Assembly (NCBI GenBank): GCA_043757165.1
Contig: JAYVPT010000040.1
Span: 60,786-124,785, forward strand
Source of the DNA: Ferruginibacter sp.
GTDB taxonomy: Bacteria > Bacteroidota > Bacteroidia > Chitinophagales > Chitinophagaceae
Direction: 5' to 3'
DNA: 64,000 nt
The notes under the pieces were generated by a model. The model worked only from the letters and a program-made list of their open reading frames with translations, searched no databases and was not told the DNA's origin. Positions 84-51,492 of this stretch are shown here, piece by piece. Both the position numbers and the translations under genes were made by a program. How positions within the stretch are numbered: the stretch's first letter is position 1; the number at the start of each line of letters is the position of its first letter.

Positions 84-240
84 AACAGTAAATATAGTTG
101 TTGTTCCTGATTTTAATTTTGATTAACTTTTGCAACCAAAAGTTGCGTATTAATGCAACATTAATAAAAAAACACTGCAATATTTTGCATGTTTCAGTAT
201 TTTTTATATCTTGCCAACCAGTTTTACCCCAAGGACTATC

Positions 241-987
241 ATGCTTAAAAAAGAACGCCAGGCTTTTATTCTGCATAATGTAAACTTACACAACCGTGTT
301 TTAAGTAGCGATTTAAGTATAGCCATAAATGTTTCGGAAGATACCATCAGAAGGGATTTGCAGGAATTATCAGAGCATAACAAACTAATAAAAGTACATG
401 GTGGAGCTTTATCCAAATCTTTTCACAGCTCCTTTAATTCATCCAAAGTTTATGCAATAGAGAATAAGAAAAAGATAGCTCAAAAAGCTGCTAATCTTAT
501 AAAAGACGGCATGTTTGTACTCACCACCGGAGGTACAACTATTATTGAGTTAGCTAAAGCATTGCCGGAAAATCTGCATGCAACTTTTATTACCGGAAGC
601 TTGCCTTCTGCCATAGAGTATATGCATCATCCCAATATAGATGTGATAATTATTGGCGATAAGCTGTCGAAAAATTCGCAGATAACAGTAGGTGGAGAAG
701 CTATCGCAAAAATAAAGCAGATAAAAGCTGACATATGTTTTGTAGGCACTAATGCATTGAGCCTGGAACATGGCTTAACTGATAATGACTGGGAAGTTGT
801 ACAGGTTAAAAAAGCCATGATAGAAGCATCGGCAAAAGTGGTATCACTTACCATTTCCGAAAAACTAAATTCAACCCAACCGATACGGATTTGCGAAACA
901 AAAGAAATTGATATTTTAATTACAGAGTTAAATGCCGATGACAAAATATTAAAGCCTTATAAAAAAAGTGGATTAACAATTATCTAA
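241..987 (+). CDS. DeoR/GlpR-family transcriptional regulator
   Basis: HTH with SEDTIRRDL and KVHGGA, then DeoRC sensor domain. Start moved to ATG 241 (MLKKERQ), the typical family N-terminus. Confidence 0.92.
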   Translation: MLKKERQAFILHNVNLHNRVLSSDLSIAINVSEDTIRRDLQELSEHNKLIKVHGGALSKSFHSSFNSSKVYAIENKKKIAQKAANLIKDGMFVLTTGGTTIIELAKALPENLHATFITGSLPSAIEYMHHPNIDVIIIGDKLSKNSQITVGGEAIAKIKQIKADICFVGTNALSLEHGLTDNDWEVVQVKKAMIEASAKVVSLTISEKLNSTQPIRICETKEIDILITELNADDKILKPYKKSGLTII

Positions 988-1017
988 AACAATTTTTTAA
1001 AACCCAAAAAATGCGAC

Positions 1018-4000
1018 ATGAGAAACTTTATTTCAAAAAAACTAATTAAACAGAAATGGCTTTGCCTGTTTCTGCTAACAAATCTGTTTGTCTTTGCAAT
1101 AAAGGCACAGGTAAAAATATCCGGTAAGGTTACCGATAGCAAAGGGGAAGCTGTAGCCGGAGTTTCTGTTTCTGTAAAAAATGATAATGCAGGTACCTCT
1201 ACGAATGCAGATGGATCATATCAGTTTATGGCCAATCTTAAAAAAGGAAAACACATATTGCTATTTTCAGGAGTGGGATTTAAAAGCATGGAGCAAACTA
1301 TTACTGTAAATGATAATGCAGAAATAACTGCCATTGCAACTTTACAAAACGATGCGATGGGAATGGATGAAGTTATTGTAACTGGTACTTCAACAGGTAC
1401 CACCCGCAGGCAATTAGGCAGCTATATCAGTACGGTAAAAGCAGATCAGCTTACCAAAGGTGCTACAGCAAATGTTCTGGCTGCATTACAAGGCAAAACT
1501 GCGGGAGCACAGATAACACAGAATAGTGGAGATCCTTCTGGTGGTATTTCTGTACGGTTACGAGGTATCAGCTCTATTTCCAGTAGCAGCGAACCTTTGT
1601 ATATCGTAGATGGTGTAATTGTAAATAATGCAACTACAAGAGTTACTAATACAAGCGGCAATTATGATGGTCAAAATTTTGTTGGTGCCATCGGGCAAAA
1701 CAGGCTGGCAGATATTAACCCTGCTGATATAGAAAGAATAGAAGTGTTGAACGGTGCTGCGGCAGCGGCAATTTATGGTTCAAGAGCAAATGCAGGCGTT
1801 GTACAAATTTTTACAAAACGTGGTAGCTCAGGAGCACCAGTTGTTAGTTTCTCATCCAGCCTTATGTTTAGTAAACTTAGAAAAAGCGTAGAAGTAAATC
1901 AATCTCCTGTAAAATTTGGTGGCCCTACCGATGGTGTAGGTGCACAAACTCAGGATATATTAACTCCGGCTTTAACTACTACTACAGGCGTAAGACGTTA
2001 TAATTATAATGACTATATTTTTCAAACTGGTGTTGGAACAGATAATAATGTTTCTATTTCCGGCGGAACTGATAAAACAAAATATTATGCTTCAGGTTCT
2101 TATTTTAAAAATGAGGGGATCATAAAAAATACGGATTACAGACGATATAGTTTCAGGGTAAATTTAGATCAGGCTATAGGTAATAAAGTAAATTTTAATA
2201 TTGGATTAAATTACGTAAATAGTTTCAGTAATGAAAAGCCTGACGGTAACTCATTTTTCTCTCCTTTAAATTCAATAAACATTATTGGTAATTTTCACGA
2301 CCTGTTTACAAGAGATGCTTTGGGTAATATTAAAGCCATTGGCGAAAGGGGGCGGGTAAACCCGGTTTCAGTTATTGAAGACATTAAACAAAAAGAGGAA
2401 ACAAACAGGGTAATTGCGGGTATGGGCTTAAAAGTAAGGCCATTTAAAGGGCTAACTTTAGACTATAAATTGGGAATAGATCAATATTCACAAAGAGGAC
2501 AAACTTATATTCCTCCCTTTGCATATAATGTGAGTGATGGATTTTTTGGTGGAGGAGCTGCTCTTGATGCTACACGTAATGGTTATGCAGGAACGGCTTC
2601 TGATAATTTTTTTCAAATAAATAATGAGATAAACGGAACTTACCAGTTTAATATAAACAATGATATAACCTCAACTACACAGGTTGGTTATTCTGTACAA
2701 TATGAAAAAAACAGTTATTCATTATTGCAGGGCCGTGGACTGGCTCCTTTTATTTCAACAGTAAGTGCAGCTAGTACATTGTTACAAGGGGCAGATGAAA
2801 GAAGTGAATTATCGGTATCCGGTTATTATGCACAGCAAAATTTTAAATATAAAAACATTTTATTTTTAACCGGAGCTATAAGAGTGGATGGTTCTTCGGT
2901 TTTTGGTAAAGATCAACGTAACCAAAAATATGCAAAAGCAAGTGCAGGGTATGTAATAAGTGAGCATGGCTTTTGGCAAAATATGGCAATAAGTAAATAC
3001 TGGAATTTTGCAAAGCTAAGAATAGCTTATGGTGAAAGTGGAAATCTTACTGGTATTGGCGCTTATCAACGTTTTAATTCTTATAGCAGTAACTCCTTTA
3101 TTAGCCGTTCTGCTTTAAGTTCCGGCAGCACTTTATCAAATCCTGATGTTAAGCCAGAAAGACAGAAAGAATTGGAGTTTGGTATTGAGTTGGGATTTTT
3201 AGCCAACAGGATAAATTTTACTGCCAATGTTTATAATAAAAAAGTTGATGATTTATTAATCAATCGTTTTATAGCACCAACAAATGGCTTTAGCAGCTAT
3301 TTAAACAATTTTGGAAGTTTAGAAAATAAAGGGTTTGAATTGATGTTGTCAGGAACTCCCGTTCAAACAAAAGATATCAACTGGAGTATTACCGGTATTT
3401 ATAATCATAACAGGAATAAAGCTGTTAAAATCGGACAGGCATTAACTTTATTGAGTACTAACTCGGGAGCTCCGGTTTCAATTATTGAAGGACAACCTAT
3501 CGGCGTTTTCTATGGTGCTTATTTTGCCTTAGATGCCGGTGGTAATCTGGTAAAGAATGCTTTCGGTTTTCCTCAGGGTGAAAGAGGCATTCAGACCGGG
3601 GCATTAGCCTATACCGTAATAAGAGACCCTGCAACAGGATTACCCATAACCACTAATCCATTGGTAAGAACTATTATAGGAGATCCAAATCCTGATTATA
3701 CGGCAACATTAACCAACGAAGTATCTTATAAAAAATTTAGTTTTAGGATACAAATAGATGCTGTAAAAGGCAATGAAGTTTTTAATGCAGACTGGAGAAC
3801 AAGGCAAGGTGTTGGTAATGGTAAAGAAGCTGAAAAAGAACAAACCGGGGTTTATCCACGTGGATATATCAGTAGTTTTTATGGCACTGTTGAACAGTGG
3901 CGTATTGATGATGGTTCCTTTGTTAAACTGCGTGAAATTTCTTTGAGTTATTCTTTAGGTAAAATAAAATGGTTTAAAGATATCACGGCTTCTGTAACCG

Positions 4001-4146
4001 GAAGAAACCTAAAAAGCTGGGATCATTACAAAGGATATGATCCGGAAGTAAATGCAGGCGGCCAAAGTAATATTTTAAGAGGAATAGATTTTGGCGCTAT
4101 TCCTATTCCAAAAACTTTCAGTATTGGGGTTTCTGCTAAATTCTAA
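1018..4146 (+). CDS. SusC/RagA-family TonB-dependent outer-membrane transporter
   Basis: Signal peptide, carboxypeptidase-regulatory-like domain, plug motifs (PLYIVDG; INPADIERIEVLNGAAAAAIYGSRANAGVVQIFTKRG) and C-terminal Phe. Confidence 0.96.
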   Translation: MRNFISKKLIKQKWLCLFLLTNLFVFAIKAQVKISGKVTDSKGEAVAGVSVSVKNDNAGTSTNADGSYQFMANLKKGKHILLFSGVGFKSMEQTITVNDNAEITAIATLQNDAMGMDEVIVTGTSTGTTRRQLGSYISTVKADQLTKGATANVLAALQGKTAGAQITQNSGDPSGGISVRLRGISSISSSSEPLYIVDGVIVNNATTRVTNTSGNYDGQNFVGAIGQNRLADINPADIERIEVLNGAAAAAIYGSRANAGVVQIFTKRGSSGAPVVSFSSSLMFSKLRKSVEVNQSPVKFGGPTDGVGAQTQDILTPALTTTTGVRRYNYNDYIFQTGVGTDNNVSISGGTDKTKYYASGSYFKNEGIIKNTDYRRYSFRVNLDQAIGNKVNFNIGLNYVNSFSNEKPDGNSFFSPLNSINIIGNFHDLFTRDALGNIKAIGERGRVNPVSVIEDIKQKEETNRVIAGMGLKVRPFKGLTLDYKLGIDQYSQRGQTYIPPFAYNVSDGFFGGGAALDATRNGYAGTASDNFFQINNEINGTYQFNINNDITSTTQVGYSVQYEKNSYSLLQGRGLAPFISTVSAASTLLQGADERSELSVSGYYAQQNFKYKNILFLTGAIRVDGSSVFGKDQRNQKYAKASAGYVISEHGFWQNMAISKYWNFAKLRIAYGESGNLTGIGAYQRFNSYSSNSFISRSALSSGSTLSNPDVKPERQKELEFGIELGFLANRINFTANVYNKKVDDLLINRFIAPTNGFSSYLNNFGSLENKGFELMLSGTPVQTKDINWSITGIYNHNRNKAVKIGQALTLLSTNSGAPVSIIEGQPIGVFYGAYFALDAGGNLVKNAFGFPQGERGIQTGALAYTVIRDPATGLPITTNPLVRTIIGDPNPDYTATLTNEVSYKKFSFRIQIDAVKGNEVFNADWRTRQGVGNGKEAEKEQTGVYPRGYISSFYGTVEQWRIDDGSFVKLREISLSYSLGKIKWFKDITASVTGRNLKSWDHYKGYDPEVNAGGQSNILRGIDFGAIPIPKTFSIGVSAKF

Positions 4147-4165
4147 ACCTTTTAAAAAAATAATT

Positions 4166-5467
4166 ATGAAAAATAGAAATAGAAAAATTGTAACAATTGC
4201 AGCATTGCTAGGTGCTACATTTTTACAAATAAGCTGTAAAAAGGATTATACCGATCCGTCAAGAGCTAATGAAGAACAGGCCTTAACTACTCCAAGGGGT
4301 TTAACCGGAGTTGCAGTAGGTTTACAAAGAGTATATACTTTAGGAAGAGGAAGTACTTTGTATAATTTAATTACCATAAATGGATTAACCACCAATGAAC
4401 TTTTTGTAGTTAATGCAGGTAATACTGCTGAGTTACAAATAGGAACCGGAGGAACATCAGTAGATGGGAACAACTCTATGTTAACCACTTACTGGACCAC
4501 TTGTAATAAAGTAATTTATGATGCAGAACTGGTGATTAGTAACTCTAAAAATTTAAGCGATAAAAATTATGCAAGTGGTTTAATTGCGTACGCAAGTATT
4601 TTTAAAGCATTATCTATTGGAGATATGGCACAGTTTTGGGAAAAAGTGCCTGCAGGTATTGGAACTAATGTAACTTTTATTGACAGGGTTGATGGTTTTA
4701 AAAAAGCAATAACAGTTATTGACGATGCATTGGCAGCTGTTGCAGCTAATCCGGTTAGCAGTTCATTTACTACCAGCATACCAGCAGGTATTGATTTGAT
4801 AAATACATTAAATGCTTTAAAAGCAAGGTACTCCTTATATGCAGGGTTATATGCACAAGCTTTGTCTTCAGCTAATTTGGTTATCCTTACTATAAAATCA
4901 ACTTTTAATTTTGATGCACTTTCTTTAAATCCTGTTTTTGAAACAGCTACATCTACAAATAACGTAGTGCAGCCTAAAGATTCTACATTAGGTTTAGTGA
5001 CTGCATTGGCGCCTTCTTTAACGGATGGCAGAGTTCCGTTTTATACTGCTATCAATACCACAATTGCTCCAAGATTTAGAATAAATGGTTTTTGTAATGC
5101 AGCTGCTACAGCTTTCCCGGTGTATCTGCCCGGAGAAATTACTTTGATCAAAGCAGAGTGTTATGCACGTAGTAACGACAGTACTACAAGCAAAATATTT
5201 TTAAATACAGTGATAACTAAAACAGCAGGTGCAGATCCGTTTGGCGTAGGTGCTAATCAGCCAGCAATTGTTTCTGTAGGTTCTTATGCAGCATTGCTGG
5301 ATGAAATATACCGTCAACGTTGTATAGAATTATTTATGAGTGGCCAGAAATTAGAGGATATGAGAAGGTTTAACAGACCAGTTGCCGAACGCAAAAGAAA
5401 TTTAATGCCTTATCCATTGCGTGAAAGGGATAACAACCCTAATACACCGGCTGATCCTCCTTTTTAA
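4166..5467 (+). CDS. SusD/RagB-family lipoprotein
   Basis: Lipobox (QISC), LIKAECYAR and EIYRQRCIELFMSGQKLEDMRRF motifs; lies 19 nt after susC. Start moved to ATG 4166. Confidence 0.92.
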   Translation: MKNRNRKIVTIAALLGATFLQISCKKDYTDPSRANEEQALTTPRGLTGVAVGLQRVYTLGRGSTLYNLITINGLTTNELFVVNAGNTAELQIGTGGTSVDGNNSMLTTYWTTCNKVIYDAELVISNSKNLSDKNYASGLIAYASIFKALSIGDMAQFWEKVPAGIGTNVTFIDRVDGFKKAITVIDDALAAVAANPVSSSFTTSIPAGIDLINTLNALKARYSLYAGLYAQALSSANLVILTIKSTFNFDALSLNPVFETATSTNNVVQPKDSTLGLVTALAPSLTDGRVPFYTAINTTIAPRFRINGFCNAAATAFPVYLPGEITLIKAECYARSNDSTTSKIFLNTVITKTAGADPFGVGANQPAIVSVGSYAALLDEIYRQRCIELFMSGQKLEDMRRFNRPVAERKRNLMPYPLRERDNNPNTPADPPF

Positions 5468-6888: not shown

Positions 6889-7686
6889 TCAGAATCTTAT
6901 ATCATAGCCAATAGTACCAATCAATTCAAAATAACCAAAACTATGGTTCACTCTTCCACCACCAGCTGCTAAGGCATTGGTATAATTGGCAAAACCTGTT
7001 TTTGCAGCACCTTCTAAAAACCATTTTTTTGAAAAATAAAACCTGCCTCCACCTTCTGCACCTAAGCAATAACCGGCAATATGAAAACGGTTGTCAACCC
7101 GTTTGCCACTTAATGTTACATCTGTTTTCGGTATAAGAATACCGGCACCAGCCTTCCATATTGCTGTAAACATTGGCCTGGTACCATTTTTTTTCAGCAA
7201 ATATTGCCTTACATAATTGATATGATAAAAATTGGCTCCGTTGGTATGCTCGAAATGTAATTGCGATGAATTAAAAGCTGTGTCTTTATCAAAATACCCT
7301 GTTCCGATAGTGCCTTTGGCATGCAGTAACTGGTTATCGTAAACAATGTATTTAGTATGGTCGTAATTAATTTCGAGAGCTTGTGTATGGCTTTTGGTTA
7401 GATAAAAACCGATGCGGTAATTGTATTGTGGAACACTGATTTGTATTGGTTCTTTGTAAACGGCATCCAGGTCGTTTCTGTCATGCGCCACAGCTTTATA
7501 AATTGTAAAATCGTGCGGTACGCCATTAACCACATCTTTAAAATGAATATTACTTTTAGTATACCATTCCGTATTATATCCCCATTGCAGGTACATACCG
7601 CAAAATAATTTCTTTTTTTCCTTTTCCTGAGAGAAGCCGTGAAATGAAGATACAGATGCCAATAAAATCAATAGATACTTTTTCAT
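6889..7686 (-). CDS. Hypothetical outer-membrane beta-barrel protein
   Basis: Signal peptide MKKYLLILLASVSSFHGFSQ, amphipathic strands and C-terminal GYDIRF. Start moved to ATG 7686. Confidence 0.7.
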   Translation of the reverse strand: MKKYLLILLASVSSFHGFSQEKEKKKLFCGMYLQWGYNTEWYTKSNIHFKDVVNGVPHDFTIYKAVAHDRNDLDAVYKEPIQISVPQYNYRIGFYLTKSHTQALEINYDHTKYIVYDNQLLHAKGTIGTGYFDKDTAFNSSQLHFEHTNGANFYHINYVRQYLLKKNGTRPMFTAIWKAGAGILIPKTDVTLSGKRVDNRFHIAGYCLGAEGGGRFYFSKKWFLEGAAKTGFANYTNALAAGGGRVNHSFGYFELIGTIGYDIRF

Positions 7687-36904: not shown

Positions 36905-37357
36905 ATGTCTGAACTATTTGGAAGAATTATTCTGGAGAGAAAAAACCAGTGGATAAACCGCTTAAAAGGCTACAAGGTAGAAATTAACGGAGCAGAGGAG
37001 GATAAGAAAATCAATAATGGTTCAAGCGAAGAATATGAAACGCCTTGTGGAACCAATGTAGTAGTTTGTAAAGTTAACTGGTGCAGCTCCAATTCACTTT
37101 CTTTTGATATAAAACCCGGCGAGACTATTTATTTAAAAGTGGTTTCAGGAATAAAATATTTTTGGGTGGTGTATGGTTTTTTAATGCTGGCACTGTTAGG
37201 GCGTACACTTTTTAAAAAACAAATGACTCCTCAGCTCAATGTTGTAATGGTTAGTGTCTCTATTGTAGTGATGTTATATTTTTTGTACTATCTAACCATT
37301 GGCAGAAAGCAATATCTTAAAATTGAAAAAGATACCAATAATATTTTTGCAAAATAA
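36905..37357 (+). CDS. Hypothetical membrane protein
   Basis: Small beta-rich N-terminal domain followed by two TM helices. Confidence 0.7.
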   Translation: MSELFGRIILERKNQWINRLKGYKVEINGAEEDKKINNGSSEEYETPCGTNVVVCKVNWCSSNSLSFDIKPGETIYLKVVSGIKYFWVVYGFLMLALLGRTLFKKQMTPQLNVVMVSVSIVVMLYFLYYLTIGRKQYLKIEKDTNNIFAK

Positions 37358-37792: not shown

Positions 37793-38257
37793 TTATACCC
37801 CAATTCCTATCTTCTTATAAATAAAACTCAATAACCATGCCGGGCCTATCATTAAAAACTGGATGTCTTTTAAAAAAGATGGTTTTTTACCTTCTACCTT
37901 ATGGCCATAAAACTGGCCTATCCATGCCAATGTAAAAGTTATTAAACAAAATAGCCATAACTGTATCAGCCCCCACTGTTCTATTAAATGGCAAAGCCAT
38001 AAACAAAAAACACCAAACAATATCATCCCAATCCACAAGGTTTTCGACAAAGAAAAATAATAGAAGATCATCAGTAACATTACCACCATTGCCAGGTTAA
38101 TTTGCACTCCTGCAATTGTCCAGGGTAATTTTACGCCATATAATAGCCCAACTACCGAAAAGAAAATAGTGGGCACACAGATCCAGTGAATGGTTTTATT
38201 GGTTTCGTTTTTATGGCTTTCGCCGTACTCTGCAAGCCACTGTTGAATCGATTTCAT
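37793..38257 (-). CDS. DUF962/Mpo1-like membrane protein
   Basis: YGESHKNETNKTIHWICVP and WIGQFYGHKVEGKKPSF motifs. Confidence 0.88.
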   Translation of the reverse strand: MKSIQQWLAEYGESHKNETNKTIHWICVPTIFFSVVGLLYGVKLPWTIAGVQINLAMVVMLLMIFYYFSLSKTLWIGMILFGVFCLWLCHLIEQWGLIQLWLFCLITFTLAWIGQFYGHKVEGKKPSFLKDIQFLMIGPAWLLSFIYKKIGIGV

Positions 38258-38310
38258 AACAAGCGTTTTTACGTTGCTTAAAGTTAAATAAAACTGTTAA
38301 CAATTCATTT

Positions 38311-38337
38311 GCAACTTTTTTATCCTTTTCGGCGTCT
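38311..38337 (+). promoter_or_regulatory. Putative ECF-sigma promoter
   Basis: GCAAC (38311-15), 17-nt spacer, CGTCT (38333-37). Confidence 0.65.
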
Positions 38338-38341
38338 TACA

Positions 38342-38402
38342 AACGGTTTTTCATAGGATATTGGATTTAAAAGGGGCTGGATTTTTATCCTGGCCCTTTT
38401 TT
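38342..38402 (+). ncRNA. Candidate ~60-nt small RNA, copy 1
   Basis: Own promoter, 5' seed GGTTTTTCATAGGATA (38345-60) and terminator hairpin 38369-38402; no co-oriented upstream gene within about 1 kb. Confidence 0.65.
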
Positions 38403-38496
38403 ATTTATACCAGTCCTCAATAATAAAAAGCACTTCTCTCGGCTGATAAAATTTAAAATTATTTTTATACAATCATTTGTTATTGATAGGGCAGAA

Positions 38497-38540
38497 GTGG
38501 CGACGCTCCGTTCAACGGCATATCATTGGGGGACTTTAAT
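38497..38540. repeat. Dispersed promoter-bearing repeat, copy L (inverted relative to copy B)
   Basis: 32/44 ungapped identity to the reverse complement of 39165-39208. Confidence 0.6.
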
Positions 38541-38571
38541 TGCGCCAATGATTATGTTATGCTAGATGATT

Positions 38572-39003
38572 TTAGACCTTAATTAAAATTTGAATTTTAG
38601 GATGTAACCACCAAATTCCTAAAGGGAAGAAAATTAGAAGTACAATATTCCCCAAGTAATCCGGGAAATGGCATTTTTTTTTCAATTCTATTGTAACAAT
38701 AGTTTTAGCAACGAACCTGATTAAATAAATACAGTTCCAGGCTAGAAAGCATTGTCCAATAATTAGTAATGGTAACATCCATTTAGGGTCTTCAATATTT
38801 GGATAAGTCAAGGCGAAATAAATTGATAATGCAATTATATAAATATTGGTTAAGACAAGTTGTACTGTAAATCGCCTAAGCTTAATTACTGGGTCATATG
38901 TGTTTTTTTCGAGAAGTTTTTTTGTAATTGAGTATGTCCAAATAAAAAAAAATGTAAAAACTGCAATATTTATGAAACACCAAAGTTTTATATTACCATA
39001 CAT
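38572..39003 (-). CDS. AT-rich orphan membrane protein, possibly frameshifted (alternative ATG at 39071)
   Basis: Four TM segments. An upstream frame MTPYFSRIPLLTLFFVSI is 1 nt out of register. Confidence 0.6.
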   Translation of the reverse strand: MYGNIKLWCFINIAVFTFFFIWTYSITKKLLEKNTYDPVIKLRRFTVQLVLTNIYIIALSIYFALTYPNIEDPKWMLPLLIIGQCFLAWNCIYLIRFVAKTIVTIELKKKCHFPDYLGNIVLLIFFPLGIWWLHPKIQILIKV

Positions 39004-48777: not shown

Positions 48778-50175
48778 CTATTCTCCAATAGTTTCAACAG
48801 CCTGTTCCAGATCAACATCTTCATTTTTTTTGTATGGCCATTTGTGCAGCAGTTTTGCATAAATAAAATAGACGACCACACCGCTGCCAAATACAATTAA
48901 GAAGGAAGCAATAATAGTTAATCCTGTTGCATAAAAAATAAACAACCACATGGCAATGGCTAAAATAACCGGTAGGGGATACAGGGGCATTTTATAAGGT
49001 AAATGTTTAGTACCGTTTCTTTTTCTTAATAAAATTATACCAACAGCCTGCCCTATAAATTGTATCATAATCCGCATGGCCAGTATGCCATCTATTACAT
49101 GTTTCATCTTAAATAATAAACTAAACACAAATGCAAAGCCCGCCAGTACTAATAATGAAACATAGGGAAAGTTTTTAGTAGGATGCAGTTTACCAAAGAA
49201 TTTAAAAAATGCACCATCAACTGCAGCAGCATAAGGAACTCTTGAGTAACCAAGCATTACTGCAAATAAAGAAGCCAATGCCACCCACAAGATCATAACA
49301 GTGGCAATATTGGCGGCATTACCTCCATAAAGCCTTTCTATAAAAGTGCTCACTACAAAATTATTTTGACCCCTGTCCTGCCAGGCTTTTATTTCCTGCC
49401 AGGGAATTACACTACTTACACTTACATTCATTGCCAGGTACAATACTGCAATGCCAATTACAGAAATAAACATGCTTCGGGGAATATTTTTTCCAGGGTT
49501 TTTTATTTCTCCACCCAAATGGCAAACATTGTAATACCCTAAATAACTGTACATCGATTTTATGCAGGCCTGCCCAAATACAAATGATGCAAGCTGTCCC
49601 CAGCTAAAATCGGTATTGATATCTTTTAATGGTTGTAAAAAATTGCCATGAGCAATGCCGCCAATTATTATCCAGCCTAAAGTAAGCAGTACACCACTCC
49701 ATAAAAACACGCCTATTTTTCCAATGCTGTCAATTTTACGGTACAATAAAAAAGTAACGAATAAAATAACAATTCCCGAAACTGCTTTTTGCTGCCACAC
49801 ATCTAAATGCACTAAATAACCTAAGTATTGCGCAAACCCTATTGCTGCTGAGGCTGCTACCAGCGGCGCCTGAATTACCGTTTGCCATACGTATAAAAAA
49901 CTCATCATCCTGCCCAGGCCATTTTTTCCGTAGGCTTCTTTTAAAAAATTATAACTGCCGCCAGCTAGCGGGTACGCAGCGCCCAGTTCACTCCATATCA
50001 TGGCATCTATCAGCGATAAAATGGCTCCTGCAATCCAGGCGTATAAAAACATGCCGCCCATAAAACCAATAACAATGGGGAGTGTTACAAAGGGGCCAAT
50101 GCCCACCATATCAATCATGTTTAAAACGGTAGATTGAAAAAGTCCAAGGCGGCGTTCGAGTTTTGGTGCCTGCAT
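48778..50175 (-). CDS. APC-family amino acid permease
   Basis: MIDMVGIGPF, WSELGAAYPLAGGSY and GEIKNPGKNIPR motifs; 12 TM. Confidence 0.93.
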   Translation of the reverse strand: MQAPKLERRLGLFQSTVLNMIDMVGIGPFVTLPIVIGFMGGMFLYAWIAGAILSLIDAMIWSELGAAYPLAGGSYNFLKEAYGKNGLGRMMSFLYVWQTVIQAPLVAASAAIGFAQYLGYLVHLDVWQQKAVSGIVILFVTFLLYRKIDSIGKIGVFLWSGVLLTLGWIIIGGIAHGNFLQPLKDINTDFSWGQLASFVFGQACIKSMYSYLGYYNVCHLGGEIKNPGKNIPRSMFISVIGIAVLYLAMNVSVSSVIPWQEIKAWQDRGQNNFVVSTFIERLYGGNAANIATVMILWVALASLFAVMLGYSRVPYAAAVDGAFFKFFGKLHPTKNFPYVSLLVLAGFAFVFSLLFKMKHVIDGILAMRIMIQFIGQAVGIILLRKRNGTKHLPYKMPLYPLPVILAIAMWLFIFYATGLTIIASFLIVFGSGVVVYFIYAKLLHKWPYKKNEDVDLEQAVETIGE

Positions 50176-50228
50176 TTCTTTAATTAATAACGGAAATTAC
50201 AATATACCGCCTAATAAAAAAAGAACAT

Positions 50229-50308
50229 AAAAAACCGGGCCTCTTTGCAGAGTCCCGGCACTAATCAAAAACTATTAACTATTAAACCTTATCCTATGAA
50301 AAACCACT
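50229..50308 (-). ncRNA. Candidate ~80-nt small RNA, copy 2
   Basis: Seed GGTTTTTCATAGGATA (50305-50290) identical to copy 1; terminator GCCGGG...CCCGG plus U-run (50259-50229). Confidence 0.65.
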
Positions 50309-50311
50309 ATT

Positions 50312-50338
50312 AGTAGCTAATCAATAAAGACAGGTTGC
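50312..50338 (-). promoter_or_regulatory. Putative ECF-sigma promoter
   Basis: GCAAC (50338-34), 17-nt spacer, CTACT (50316-12). Confidence 0.55.
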
Positions 50339-50352
50339 ATGGTATAAATATT

Positions 50353-50880
50353 TTACCATTTCGATGTAAACTCTTTCATAAAATCAGGGAAGTTTTTATT
50401 TTTATAAATACCATCACCAAAAAACTTTAGTGGGGCTTCCAGTTCCGAAGGTTTTAAAAATCCTGCTAATGGTGCAGGCTGGGCATCTAAACTTGATAAT
50501 AAAACCGTGGTTGGATAACCCATACGGCCAAACAAAAGATAAACCGCCAGGTCATTGGCTTTATAAGCCGGGTTATAACCATATTTTTTGCCACCCAGCT
50601 CAGCATAATCTTTCGATTCGGCATTGAATTTTACAGCATAATAATTTTCGTTGATATAACTGGCTACGGCATCATTTCCATAGGTTTCTTTATCCATCAC
50701 TTTACACCAGCCACACCAGTTGGTATACACATCAATGATTATAGGCCTGGGCTGCTTATTGTAAGCCACACTTAACTCACTCAGGCTTAACCATTTTACC
50801 TTTTCTTTTTTTGGAGGAGTAAAGGAAAAAATAACTATTGAAAGGGTAAGGAGAACAAAAAAATATTTAACCTTCTGCAT
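50353..50880 (-). CDS. Periplasmic thioredoxin-family protein (DUF255-like)
   Basis: DVYTNWCGWCKVMD and GYPTTV motifs; signal peptide. Confidence 0.9.
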   Translation of the reverse strand: MQKVKYFFVLLTLSIVIFSFTPPKKEKVKWLSLSELSVAYNKQPRPIIIDVYTNWCGWCKVMDKETYGNDAVASYINENYYAVKFNAESKDYAELGGKKYGYNPAYKANDLAVYLLFGRMGYPTTVLLSSLDAQPAPLAGFLKPSELEAPLKFFGDGIYKNKNFPDFMKEFTSKW

Positions 50881-50934
50881 GAAATAATTGTTTTGTAGTT
50901 TTAATTGGGATACGCAAAAAATAAACGAAAATTT

Positions 50935-51492
50935 ATGAATAAAATTGTGATAGCCATTACGGGTGCAAGTGGTTCAATTTATCCAAAATTATTATTGGAT
51001 AAACTAATAAACGTAAAAGAACAGTGGACGGATTTAGCTGTGGTGATGACAGCAAATGCCAAAGAGGTATGGAAAACGGAATTAGATAACGAAGATTATA
51101 AAAACCTTCCGGTGAAAATATATACCCAACAGGATTTTAATGCACCATTTGCATCAGGTTCAGGGCAATTTAATACCATGATAATTATTCCCTGCAGTAT
51201 GGGTACTTTGGGGAGGGTTGCTTCAGGTATTTCAAACGATTTAATTACAAGGGCGGCCGATGTAGTTTTAAAAGAACGTAGAAAACTGATTTGTGTGGCA
51301 AGGGATATGCCTTACAATCTTATTCATATCCGCAATATGGAAACAGTAACATTAGCAGGCGGTATCATTTGTCCTGCCACACCATCTTTTTACAGTAAAC
51401 CAAAAACCATTGAAGATGTTGCTACCACGGTTGTAGACAGGGTGCTTGATCTGGCAGGTATTGATATTAAAACTTTCAGGTGGGGAAAATAA
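50935..51492 (+). CDS. ubiX: Flavin prenyltransferase
   Basis: IAITGASG, ASGS, PCSMGTL, RAADVVLKERRKL and PATPSFY motifs. Start moved to ATG 50935. Confidence 0.94.
   Translation: MNKIVIAITGASGSIYPKLLLDKLINVKEQWTDLAVVMTANAKEVWKTELDNEDYKNLPVKIYTQQDFNAPFASGSGQFNTMIIIPCSMGTLGRVASGISNDLITRAADVVLKERRKLICVARDMPYNLIHIRNMETVTLAGGIICPATPSFYSKPKTIEDVATTVVDRVLDLAGIDIKTFRWGK

Follow-up and report, generated by a model that had tools for sequence, protein, structure and literature searches.

A small RNA gene of Chitinophagaceae with a FopS/GibS-like 5' seed and a predicted ECF-type promoter

The intergenic unit at positions 38311-38402 of the window, by which we mean the whole 64,000-nucleotide (nt) stretch of Ferruginibacter sp. 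contig JAYVPT010000040.1 analysed here, consists of a -35-like and a -10-like element, a conserved 5' block, a linker and a hairpin with a T-run (Table 1). A sequence-only reading had taken it for a small RNA (sRNA) driven by a sigma factor of the extracytoplasmic function (ECF) type, and each part of that arrangement (GCAAC-N17-CGTCT, 7 nt, 5' block, linker, hairpin, T6) was found where that reading had placed it. The RNA predicted from the unit, 38345-38402 (+), would be about 58 nt long, starting 12 nt 3' of the C in CGT. When folded as a 61-nt RNA, its 5' part is open and its terminator closed (-18.1 kcal/mol, z = -2.4). The bulge is presumably why a simple scan for terminators passed over the hairpin. 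The unit stands back to back with a gene for an Mpo1-like membrane protein, as had been noted from the sequence; the closest + strand gene on its 5' side ends at 37357, with two minus-strand genes between. With no + strand gene ending close by, the unit is therefore not a 3' untranslated region, which was also correctly foreseen. The Mpo1-like gene is a synteny partner and is not proposed as a target. With up to 3 mismatches allowed, the 23-mer seed occurs nowhere else in the window (0 expected).

Table 1. Positions of the sRNA unit, its paralogue and the genes discussed, in window coordinates
Feature	Position	Strand	Remarks
-35 element GCAAC	38311-38315	+	followed by a 17-nt spacer
-10 element CGTCTTA	38333-38339	+	CGTCT = 38333-38337; CGT at -12 to -10
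Predicted transcription start	38345 (+/-1 nt)	+	first G of the conserved block; abrupt onset of conservation
5' block GGTTTTTCATAGGATA, 16 nt	38345-38360	+	7 nt past CGTCT, 5 nt past CGTCTTA
Single-stranded 5' seed GGUUUUUCAUAGGAUAUUGGAUU, FopS R1' homologue	38345-38367	+	23 nt; unpaired in the minimum-free-energy centroid
A/U-rich linker UAAAA	38368-38372	+	length and sequence differ among relatives
Terminator hairpin GGGGCTGGAT/TTTT/ATCCTGGCCC	38373-38396	+	10-pair stem, one bulge, UUUU loop
T6/U6 tail of intrinsic terminator	38397-38402	+	predicted RNA end
Mpo1-like membrane protein gene (PF06127, formerly DUF962)	37793-38257	-	Pfam E = 3e-17
Type B paralogue, about 77 nt	50305-50229	-	16-nt 5' end GGTTTTTCATAGGATA identical to type A
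Type B promoter-like region	50310-50339	-	TGCAAC 50339-50334, 17 nt, CTACTAA 50316-50310
Thioredoxin-like (DsbH/DUF255) gene	50353-50880	-	type B neighbour
Amino-acid permease gene	48778-50175	-	type B neighbour
DeoR-family regulator	211-987	+	heads polysaccharide-utilisation-type locus 211-5467
SusC-like TonB-dependent transporter	1018-4146	+	
SusD-like protein	4166-5467	+	

The unit is a gene in its own right, as its conservation shows. By way of the Mpo1-like protein (60-84% identity in that protein) we fetched 80 related loci, all from metagenome-assembled genomes of Chitinophagales, mostly Ferruginibacter and Chitinophagaceae. The unit lies 5' of the Mpo1-like gene, in the same orientation and at a distance of 80-260 nt, in 44 of the 80 loci, and an exact 20-mer was found again in 43. 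The sequence-only reading had made itself depend on a seed kept in relatives, and in an alignment of 50 copies from these 44 loci (A1) nt 1-21, GGTTTTTCATAGGATATTGGA, do not vary at all and nt 22-23 are at least 90% conserved. The linker (alignment columns 22-30) varies in length and the promoter spacer is also free. The lower stem is free in sequence yet stays paired: pairing holds in 88.6% of cells, a share that drops to 56% or less once the 3' partners are slid, both sides have changed in five of the ten stem pairs, and the covariation score was matched by none of 500 shuffles. The stem apex, GAU-YUYY-AUC, is conserved in sequence. With a covariance model made from the alignment (R1), the sense strand reaches 70-84 bits and the antisense strand 27 at most, and a T-run follows the stem in nearly all copies, on the + strand only. 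In the relatives, queA has a terminator to itself, separate from and upstream of the hairpin, which therefore belongs to the sRNA unit. By conservation pattern, stem covariation and strand asymmetry, the locus is thus an independent small RNA gene, in agreement with the sequence-only reading.

The gene is also duplicated. A second full tandem copy is present in seven loci (L005, L008, L010, L013, L015, L039, L041), each copy with promoter-like boxes of its own, which read CGTATAT and not CGTCTTA in the second copies; in one more locus (L002) the second copy is degenerate, its seed being mutated (GGTTTTTCACAGAATAATGCATT), and is probably a decaying duplicate. In two public runs of unknown type (X5 and X6), 21 and 61 Logan contigs agree with the window over 38343-38406 alone and differ from it to either side, with a summed word depth of up to about 1400; the sRNA family therefore occurs in many genomes or copies in those communities, the ends of such contigs being possible assembly breaks at shared sequence.

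The 5' end connects the window RNA to known regulators. FopS are paralogous sRNAs of Bacteroides thetaiotaomicron and other Bacteroidaceae which consist of a single-stranded 5' stretch and a terminator, pair at the start codon of susC-like mRNAs and, in vivo as well as in vitro, repress their translation (Ruttiger et al., Nat Commun 2025, PMC11697453). FopS-10 protects its predicted site on susC(BT_3983) in in-line probing and blocks translation of that mRNA in vitro, and fopS mutants have a de-repressed polysaccharide utilisation locus (PMC11697453). GibS (BTnc035, Rfam RF04182), also from Bacteroides, has a conserved unstructured 5' seed, R1 (GUGUUUUUCAUAGUAUUAGAU), which pairs over the start codons of BT_0771 and BT_3893 (Ryan et al., Nat Commun 2020, PMC7366714). 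When set against the 70% consensus published for the FopS seed R1', GTGTTTTTCATAGTATTAGATTTAAGGTTAACAAA (PMC11697453), the window RNA and its relatives, hereafter type A, are identical at 22 of 23 positions with a 2-nt insert; the alignment score of 34 compares with 12 +/- 2.3 for shuffles and was reached by none of 2000. The paralogue at 50305-50229 (type B) is identical at 25 of 29 positions with one gap, and again none of 2000 shuffles reached its score. In both types the R1/R1' seed stands at the extreme 5' end, and the alignment puts the mapped FopS 5' end (GUG) at -1/+1 of the start predicted here.

Searches with Rfam agree with this at low score. FopS (RF04319) is the best match of type B (50225-50307, -), over the full model, at 32.1 bits (E = 0.0015-0.003); a metagenomic type B (L106) reaches 31.5 bits. 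GibS RF04182 matches type B at 21.1 bits with a 47-nt deletion relative to the model. The consensus of RF04319, a model built from the 14 B. thetaiotaomicron copies only (PMC11697453), starts GUG-UUUUUCAUgGUAUUAGAUUUAA-GGUUAA. On the R1' alignment and the Rfam matches together, we take the window RNAs to be distant homologues of the GibS/FopS R1-seed sRNAs. The role of the 5' end as a seed, proposed from the letters, is thereby upheld, by its recurrence in type B as well as by its homology to R1 and R1'. They form a divergent branch of the FopS/GibS family in another class of Bacteroidota, one not described before.

With FopS they share the 5' sequence (GUGUUUUUCAUAGUAUUAGAUUUAAGGUUAA in FopS, (U)GGUUUUUCAUAGGAUAUUGGAUUUAA in type A, GGUUUUUCAUAGGAUAAGGUUUAAUGGUUAA in type B), the anti-start-codon CAU at nt 8-10 (which reads CAC in two copies) and, in type A, the open 5' part followed by a covarying terminator stem. 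They may also share multiplicity: Bacteroides genomes have 12-15 FopS copies, the window has two seed-bearing genes in 64 kb, and tandem pairs or triplets occur in the seven loci named above and in L158 and L179. By analogy, translation repression at the starts of susC-like and other outer-membrane protein mRNAs would be common to both. There are also differences. FopS lengths cluster at 65-70 nt, whereas the window RNAs, at 58 nt (A) and about 77 nt (B), are close but outside; FopS come from gut Bacteroidia, the present RNAs from environmental Chitinophagia. Type A is without the GGUUAA extension of R1' and has the 2-nt insert and a conserved apical stem motif. FopS promoters are of the canonical sigma-ABfr type (TAnnTTTG), whereas type A and the type B of the window have AAC-N17-CG(T/A)C and no TAnnTTTG. 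The 14 FopS copies are dispersed, whereas here synteny is fixed, with the Mpo1-like gene for A and the thioredoxin-like and permease genes for B. GibS is similar in its seed and in its non-housekeeping promoter, whose -10 and -30 elements are conserved among species. In contrast to the window RNAs, it is 145 nt long, with a second seed, R2, for which the 58 nt of type A leave no room, and extra stem-loops, and it is induced by glycans containing N-acetylglucosamine and in stationary phase; the hallmarks of GibS (about 145 nt, R1 plus R2, 115 bits) are absent here.

Type B came from a relaxed search of the window for the 5' block. After the shared 16 nt it continues with a different, 30-nt single-stranded body, AGGUUUAAUAGUUAAUAGUUUUUGAUUAGUG, the hairpin CCGGGACUCU/GCAA/AGAGGCCCGG (stem arm also written CCGGGACTCT) and T6; model R1 gives it 22.4 bits. 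Its 3' end is about 50 nt short of the permease start, and it could therefore also act as a permease leader. Type B is widespread in metagenomes, which were scanned for the 16-mer followed by a non-T base, which excludes type A. At least 120 loci matched, many of them chance gene starts on the opposite strand; at least 22 further distinct type-B sequences are among the matches listed, and one (L098) has the same gene neighbours as the window copy. Type-B copies have GGUUUUUCAUAGGAUAAGGUUUAAUGGUUAAUGGU(A/U)UUUGAUUAGUGC in common, and each has a GC hairpin and T-run of its own, the hairpin sequences differing. RNAalifold gave no consensus structure for type B because MAFFT left these hairpins of differing sequence and length out of register.

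For the promoter, 52 distinct upstream regions were compared. The only conserved spots are (G/A)CAAC at -34 to -30 (C 34, A 48, A 46, C 42), CGTCTTA at -12 to -6 (C 39, G 47, T 47, C 33, T 47, T 33, A 34) and a T at -1; an NGT triplet, mostly CGT, begins at -12 in 46 of the regions, and the 17 nt between the boxes are not conserved. Tandem second copies, in unrelated flanks, still have AAACC-N16-CGTAT. This is the layout of the promoters mapped for SM6, the sigma-ECF motif of Flavobacterium psychrophilum, which have ACAAC, GTAAC or ACAAT, a spacer of 16 nt (17 nt here) and CGT at -12 to -10 (Guerin et al., ISME Commun 2021, PMC9723704 Table S2). With SM6 spacing, +1 at the sRNA locus falls on 38345, where the invariant block begins and where the onset of conservation had also placed the start. 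The SM6 regulon comprises type IX secretion system parts along with Band-7 proteins, and the F. psychrophilum sRNAs Rfp11, Rfp31 and Rfp74, with which the window RNA shares promoter architecture, demonstrate that SM6 promoters can drive sRNAs in Bacteroidota (PMC9723704). Since type A has SM6-like boxes and spacing and does not keep the TAnnTTTG of the housekeeping -7 box, an ECF-type promoter, judged by motif and spacing, is the best reading; the -35 and -10 named by the sequence-only reading have held, with conserved boxes and a free spacer. Rfp11 (109 nt, SM6-driven) was considered as a relative and rejected, its sequence being unrelated to the window RNA. The guide RNA of dCas12f-sigmaE systems (PMC13472631), considered for its ECF link, was also rejected; the guide there forms the 3'-terminal part of a TnpB-like scaffold, and the neighbourhood has no dCas12f gene.

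We propose, with a probability of roughly 0.7, that the locus encodes a trans-acting sRNA of about 58 nt, a Chitinophagaceae form of the GibS/FopS R1-seed kind, which is transcribed from an ECF-type promoter and masks start codons. RNA polymerase holoenzyme with an ECF sigma factor would start at the first G (GCAAC-N17-CGTCTTA-N5-G) and the intrinsic terminator would end the transcript, which would consist of the unstructured, invariant stretch GGUUUUUCAUAGGAUAUUGGAUU and the terminator hairpin. On a target, CAU would lie on AUG, the U-run on A-rich codons 2-3 and AGGAUA... on bases upstream; the start codon would be masked and initiation blocked, in a phylum without Shine-Dalgarno sequences. 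Such a mechanism is suggested here by homology, because it has been shown experimentally for FopS and GibS. The likely targets would be genes that open an operon for outer-membrane or exported proteins, e.g. SusC-like transporters, and type B, with the same seed, would probably have overlapping ones. The envelope stress signal and the broad repression of signal-peptide genes that the sequence-only reading had added are conjecture.

Several results weigh against this proposal. Type B falls below the FopS gathering score (32 against 56 bits) and type A has no match to the Rfam FopS model at E <= 10, and by the Rfam threshold the window RNAs are not FopS members; Rfam also gave no match over the whole window at gathering score, and an E-value scan of 38100-38700 gave chance-level matches only, the best being ar15 at 20 bits. 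The comparison with FopS called for by the sequence-only reading thus places the RNAs with the FopS/GibS kind while it denies them formal membership, and their novelty is lower than that reading supposed, because they belong with the very kind it had named. In public runs, the window sequence is found in sediment DNA metagenomes only. Metatranscriptome contigs with type B also cover its flanks; since the ends of assembled contigs may be graph breaks and the flanks are covered, neither RNA ends nor expression can be read from them. No ECF sigma gene was found among the window open reading frames (ORFs) scanned with Pfam, and a motif search of the window and the fetched loci found no gene for an RNA recognition motif (RRM) protein like RbpB, the FopS-binding protein discussed below. 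Thirteen metagenomic relatives of type B, among the matches listed, carry a perfect TAnnTTTG, and the FopS genes of B. thetaiotaomicron have canonical, housekeeping sigma-ABfr promoters (PMC11697453). ECF control is therefore lineage-specific at best, and not a property of the whole family.

Target searches also fell short. The susC start (1018; AUGAGAAACU, GACAUGAGAAACU) can pair with nt 1-10 of the sRNA (10 pairs including 2 G-U) and the susD start (4166; UUAUGAAAAAU) with nt 2-12 (11 pairs including 2 G-U), and the starts at 7686(-), 33880(+) and 62701(+), which read AUGAAAAA, offer 8-nt matches. The susD and 8-nt matches had been pointed out from the sequence and are real; window matches of this kind (8-11 nt) are common, and no better than background in duplex energy. 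At gene starts these energies equal background (-9.0 against -8.6 kcal/mol), and with RNAduplex the susC start is among the better real ones, yet the overall distribution is that of background. Neither in-register nor free complementarity gave a long or conserved target site in the window and the 80 loci (about 0.6 Mb). The sole recurrent complementarity of 12 nt is antisense to the queA coding sequence and was rejected, as was the start region of the Mpo1-like gene, which pairs with the seed over 8 nt only. One statistic alone is mildly favourable: of 479 predicted starts, 110 allow the real seed eight or more in-register pairs, where flank-shuffled seeds have 34 +/- 29 (top ~6%); the 479 include many orthologues and are not independent. 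With duplex energies at background and no long conserved site, the targets named above can only be put forward as candidates.

Of the alternatives, the one that survives best, unlikely as we consider it, has the same sRNA with the same seed and action transcribed by other means than an ECF sigma factor. The boxes would then serve sigma-A with an unusual -7, another alternative factor (as with the 'PM2' motif of GibS) or a DNA-binding regulator shared with the Mpo1-like promoter. It draws on the sigma-ABfr promoters of FopS, the non-canonical -10/-30 motif of GibS, the many type-B relatives in which a perfect TAnnTTTG abuts GGTTTTT, the lack of an ECF sigma gene among the ORFs scanned, and a second conserved region, TGTTAACAATTCATTT, which lies 5' of the -35 and overlaps the divergent Mpo1-like promoter. 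Set against this, the bases of type A from CGTCTTA to +1 are variable and do not keep TTTG, and the TTTG in ATTTGCAAC is 26 nt from TA, too far for a -33/-7 pair; AAC-N17-CGT with CGT at -12 to -10 is the arrangement of mapped F. psychrophilum sigma-ECF promoters (N16 there), and the tandem second copies keep AAC-N16/17-CGTAT despite different flanks.

Type B relatives illustrate how the promoter can vary. In one class (L090, L098, L115, L160, L192, L194) it reads ATGCAAC-N17-CGACTAA or CGACTAT, a consensus from which the CTACTAA of the window copy, 4 nt before the 5' block, departs. In the other, a perfect TAnnTTTG ends at the first G of GGTTTTTCAT (L087, L093, L097, L100, L106, L109, L121, L123, L142, L149, L154, L163, L168); these copies should start 4-6 nt further in, within the U-run, so that their RNA would begin at about UUCAUAGGAUA. 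With two promoter classes upstream of type B, the seed seems to have been held constant while the promoter was exchanged among lineages; the class was apparently swapped and the seed and RNA kept.

A second alternative, less probable still, accepts the RNA and gives it another partner: its main task would be to titrate an RNA-binding protein of the RRM-1 type, similar to RbpB, and the invariant 23 nt with their GGAU repeats would be a protein site. The RRM protein RbpB indeed binds the 5' portions of FopS and GibS, as seen in crosslinking-immunoprecipitation (CLIP) peaks and electrophoretic mobility shift assays, and counteracts these sRNAs (PMC11697453). The invariance over 21-23 nt exceeds the usual length of a seed, and GGAU occurs in the seed at nt 12-15 and 19-22, while the conserved stem apex has a further GAU. 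However, in-line probing, in vitro translation and point mutants have shown that FopS represses through base pairing and that RbpB is its antagonist, and the window and fetched loci gave no RRM gene; moreover, pairing and protein binding are compatible with each other.

That there is no functional RNA at all, the hairpin being a bidirectional terminator for the converging minus-strand gene and the block a DNA-level regulatory site or promoter element of the Mpo1-like gene or, in a variant, an opposite-strand ORF of 5 codons (MKNRL), is very improbable. The A-run 5' of the hairpin would permit termination both ways, linkage between the block and the Mpo1-like gene is tight, and ATGAAAAACC...TAA is in frame in many copies. 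But queA has its separate terminator, the long T-run is on the + strand only, and the covariance model favours that strand by more than 45 bits. The 16-nt block also stands before another RNA body, both at an unrelated locus and in other lineages, and can be aligned with the 5' end of Bacteroides sRNAs that were mapped by experiment. The mini-ORF has no synonymous variation in codons 1-3, free codons 4-5 and, in some copies, stops at codon 5. This pattern of conservation led us to reject a small ORF on both strands; a UUG-initiated frame on the + strand runs through the terminator and is broken in relatives by linker indels.

Base-pairing sRNAs are seldom recognisable beyond a family or an order. 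The sigmaE-dependent sRNAs RybB, MicA, MicL and VrrA/MicV of enterobacteria and Vibrio combine an ECF-sigma promoter with a short RNA whose conserved 5' end represses outer-membrane protein mRNAs; they need Hfq and mostly pair in the 5' untranslated or early coding regions of mRNAs that contain Shine-Dalgarno sequences. To our knowledge, Bacteroidota have no Hfq and their mRNAs no such sequences. These sRNAs, with which the window RNA has no homology in sequence or structure, serve as a working analogy alone. As a tentative idea, somewhat less likely to be right than wrong, the R1 seed may be an ancient regulator common to several classes which was placed under an ECF sigma factor in Chitinophagaceae, as a counterpart of sigmaE with RybB and MicA. 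If true, the seed has been kept almost letter for letter since the split of Bacteroidia and Chitinophagia, and the synthesis of outer-membrane transporters would be shut down on envelope trouble without Hfq or Shine-Dalgarno sequences.

Descriptions of FopS and GibS, made by BLAST, have so far stayed within Bacteroidaceae (PMC11697453). A nearly identical seed in uncultured Chitinophagaceae of soil, sludge and freshwater suggests that start-codon masking by U5-CAU-AGxAU is deep-rooted as a means of post-transcriptional control in this phylum. The family is of a known kind; it is the other class, the shorter body, the fixed synteny and the conserved ECF-type promoter that differ. The Rfam FopS model is too narrow and could be broadened with loci of the window type. 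About 50 type-A and at least 23 type-B copies, with further short variants, offer a comparative set for seed positions and co-evolving mRNAs, and the apparent switch of promoter class, ECF-like here and housekeeping elsewhere, would be a simple case of one regulator rewired to different signals.

Some minor observations concern the surroundings. The polysaccharide-utilisation-type locus at 211-5467 is headed by a DeoR-family regulator and not by the usual ECF/anti-sigma pair or hybrid two-component regulator. Beside the sRNA, a minus-strand ORF of 143 amino acids (38572-39003) is hydrophobic and of no Pfam family; this ORF and the 170-nt spacer are missing in most relatives, where queA converges directly, and 38403-39003 looks like a lineage-specific insertion. 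About 40 nt 5' of the thioredoxin-like/DsbH gene there is an ECF-like motif (ACAAT or CAAC, 16-17 nt, CGTTT) in three genomes, at 50921-50948 (-) of the window and in L106 and L121; its -35 overlaps the start region of a divergent flavoprotein (UbiX-like) gene, and its conservation is therefore confounded.

Further elements share the 5' end. Short variants, some in tandem arrays, occur in L084, L146, L158 (two tandem copies), L179 (three) and L189. The same 16 nt also head unrelated bodies in L082 and L086 (two matches about 75 nt apart), in L131, L170 and L177, and in L107, L119 and L166; examples are GGATACGGCTTTCAATAG..., followed about 75 nt on by GGATATGTCAATG..., and GGATAAAGGATACAGGATTAAGGGCG with a hairpin. 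These elements may be additional subfamilies in other Bacteroidota.

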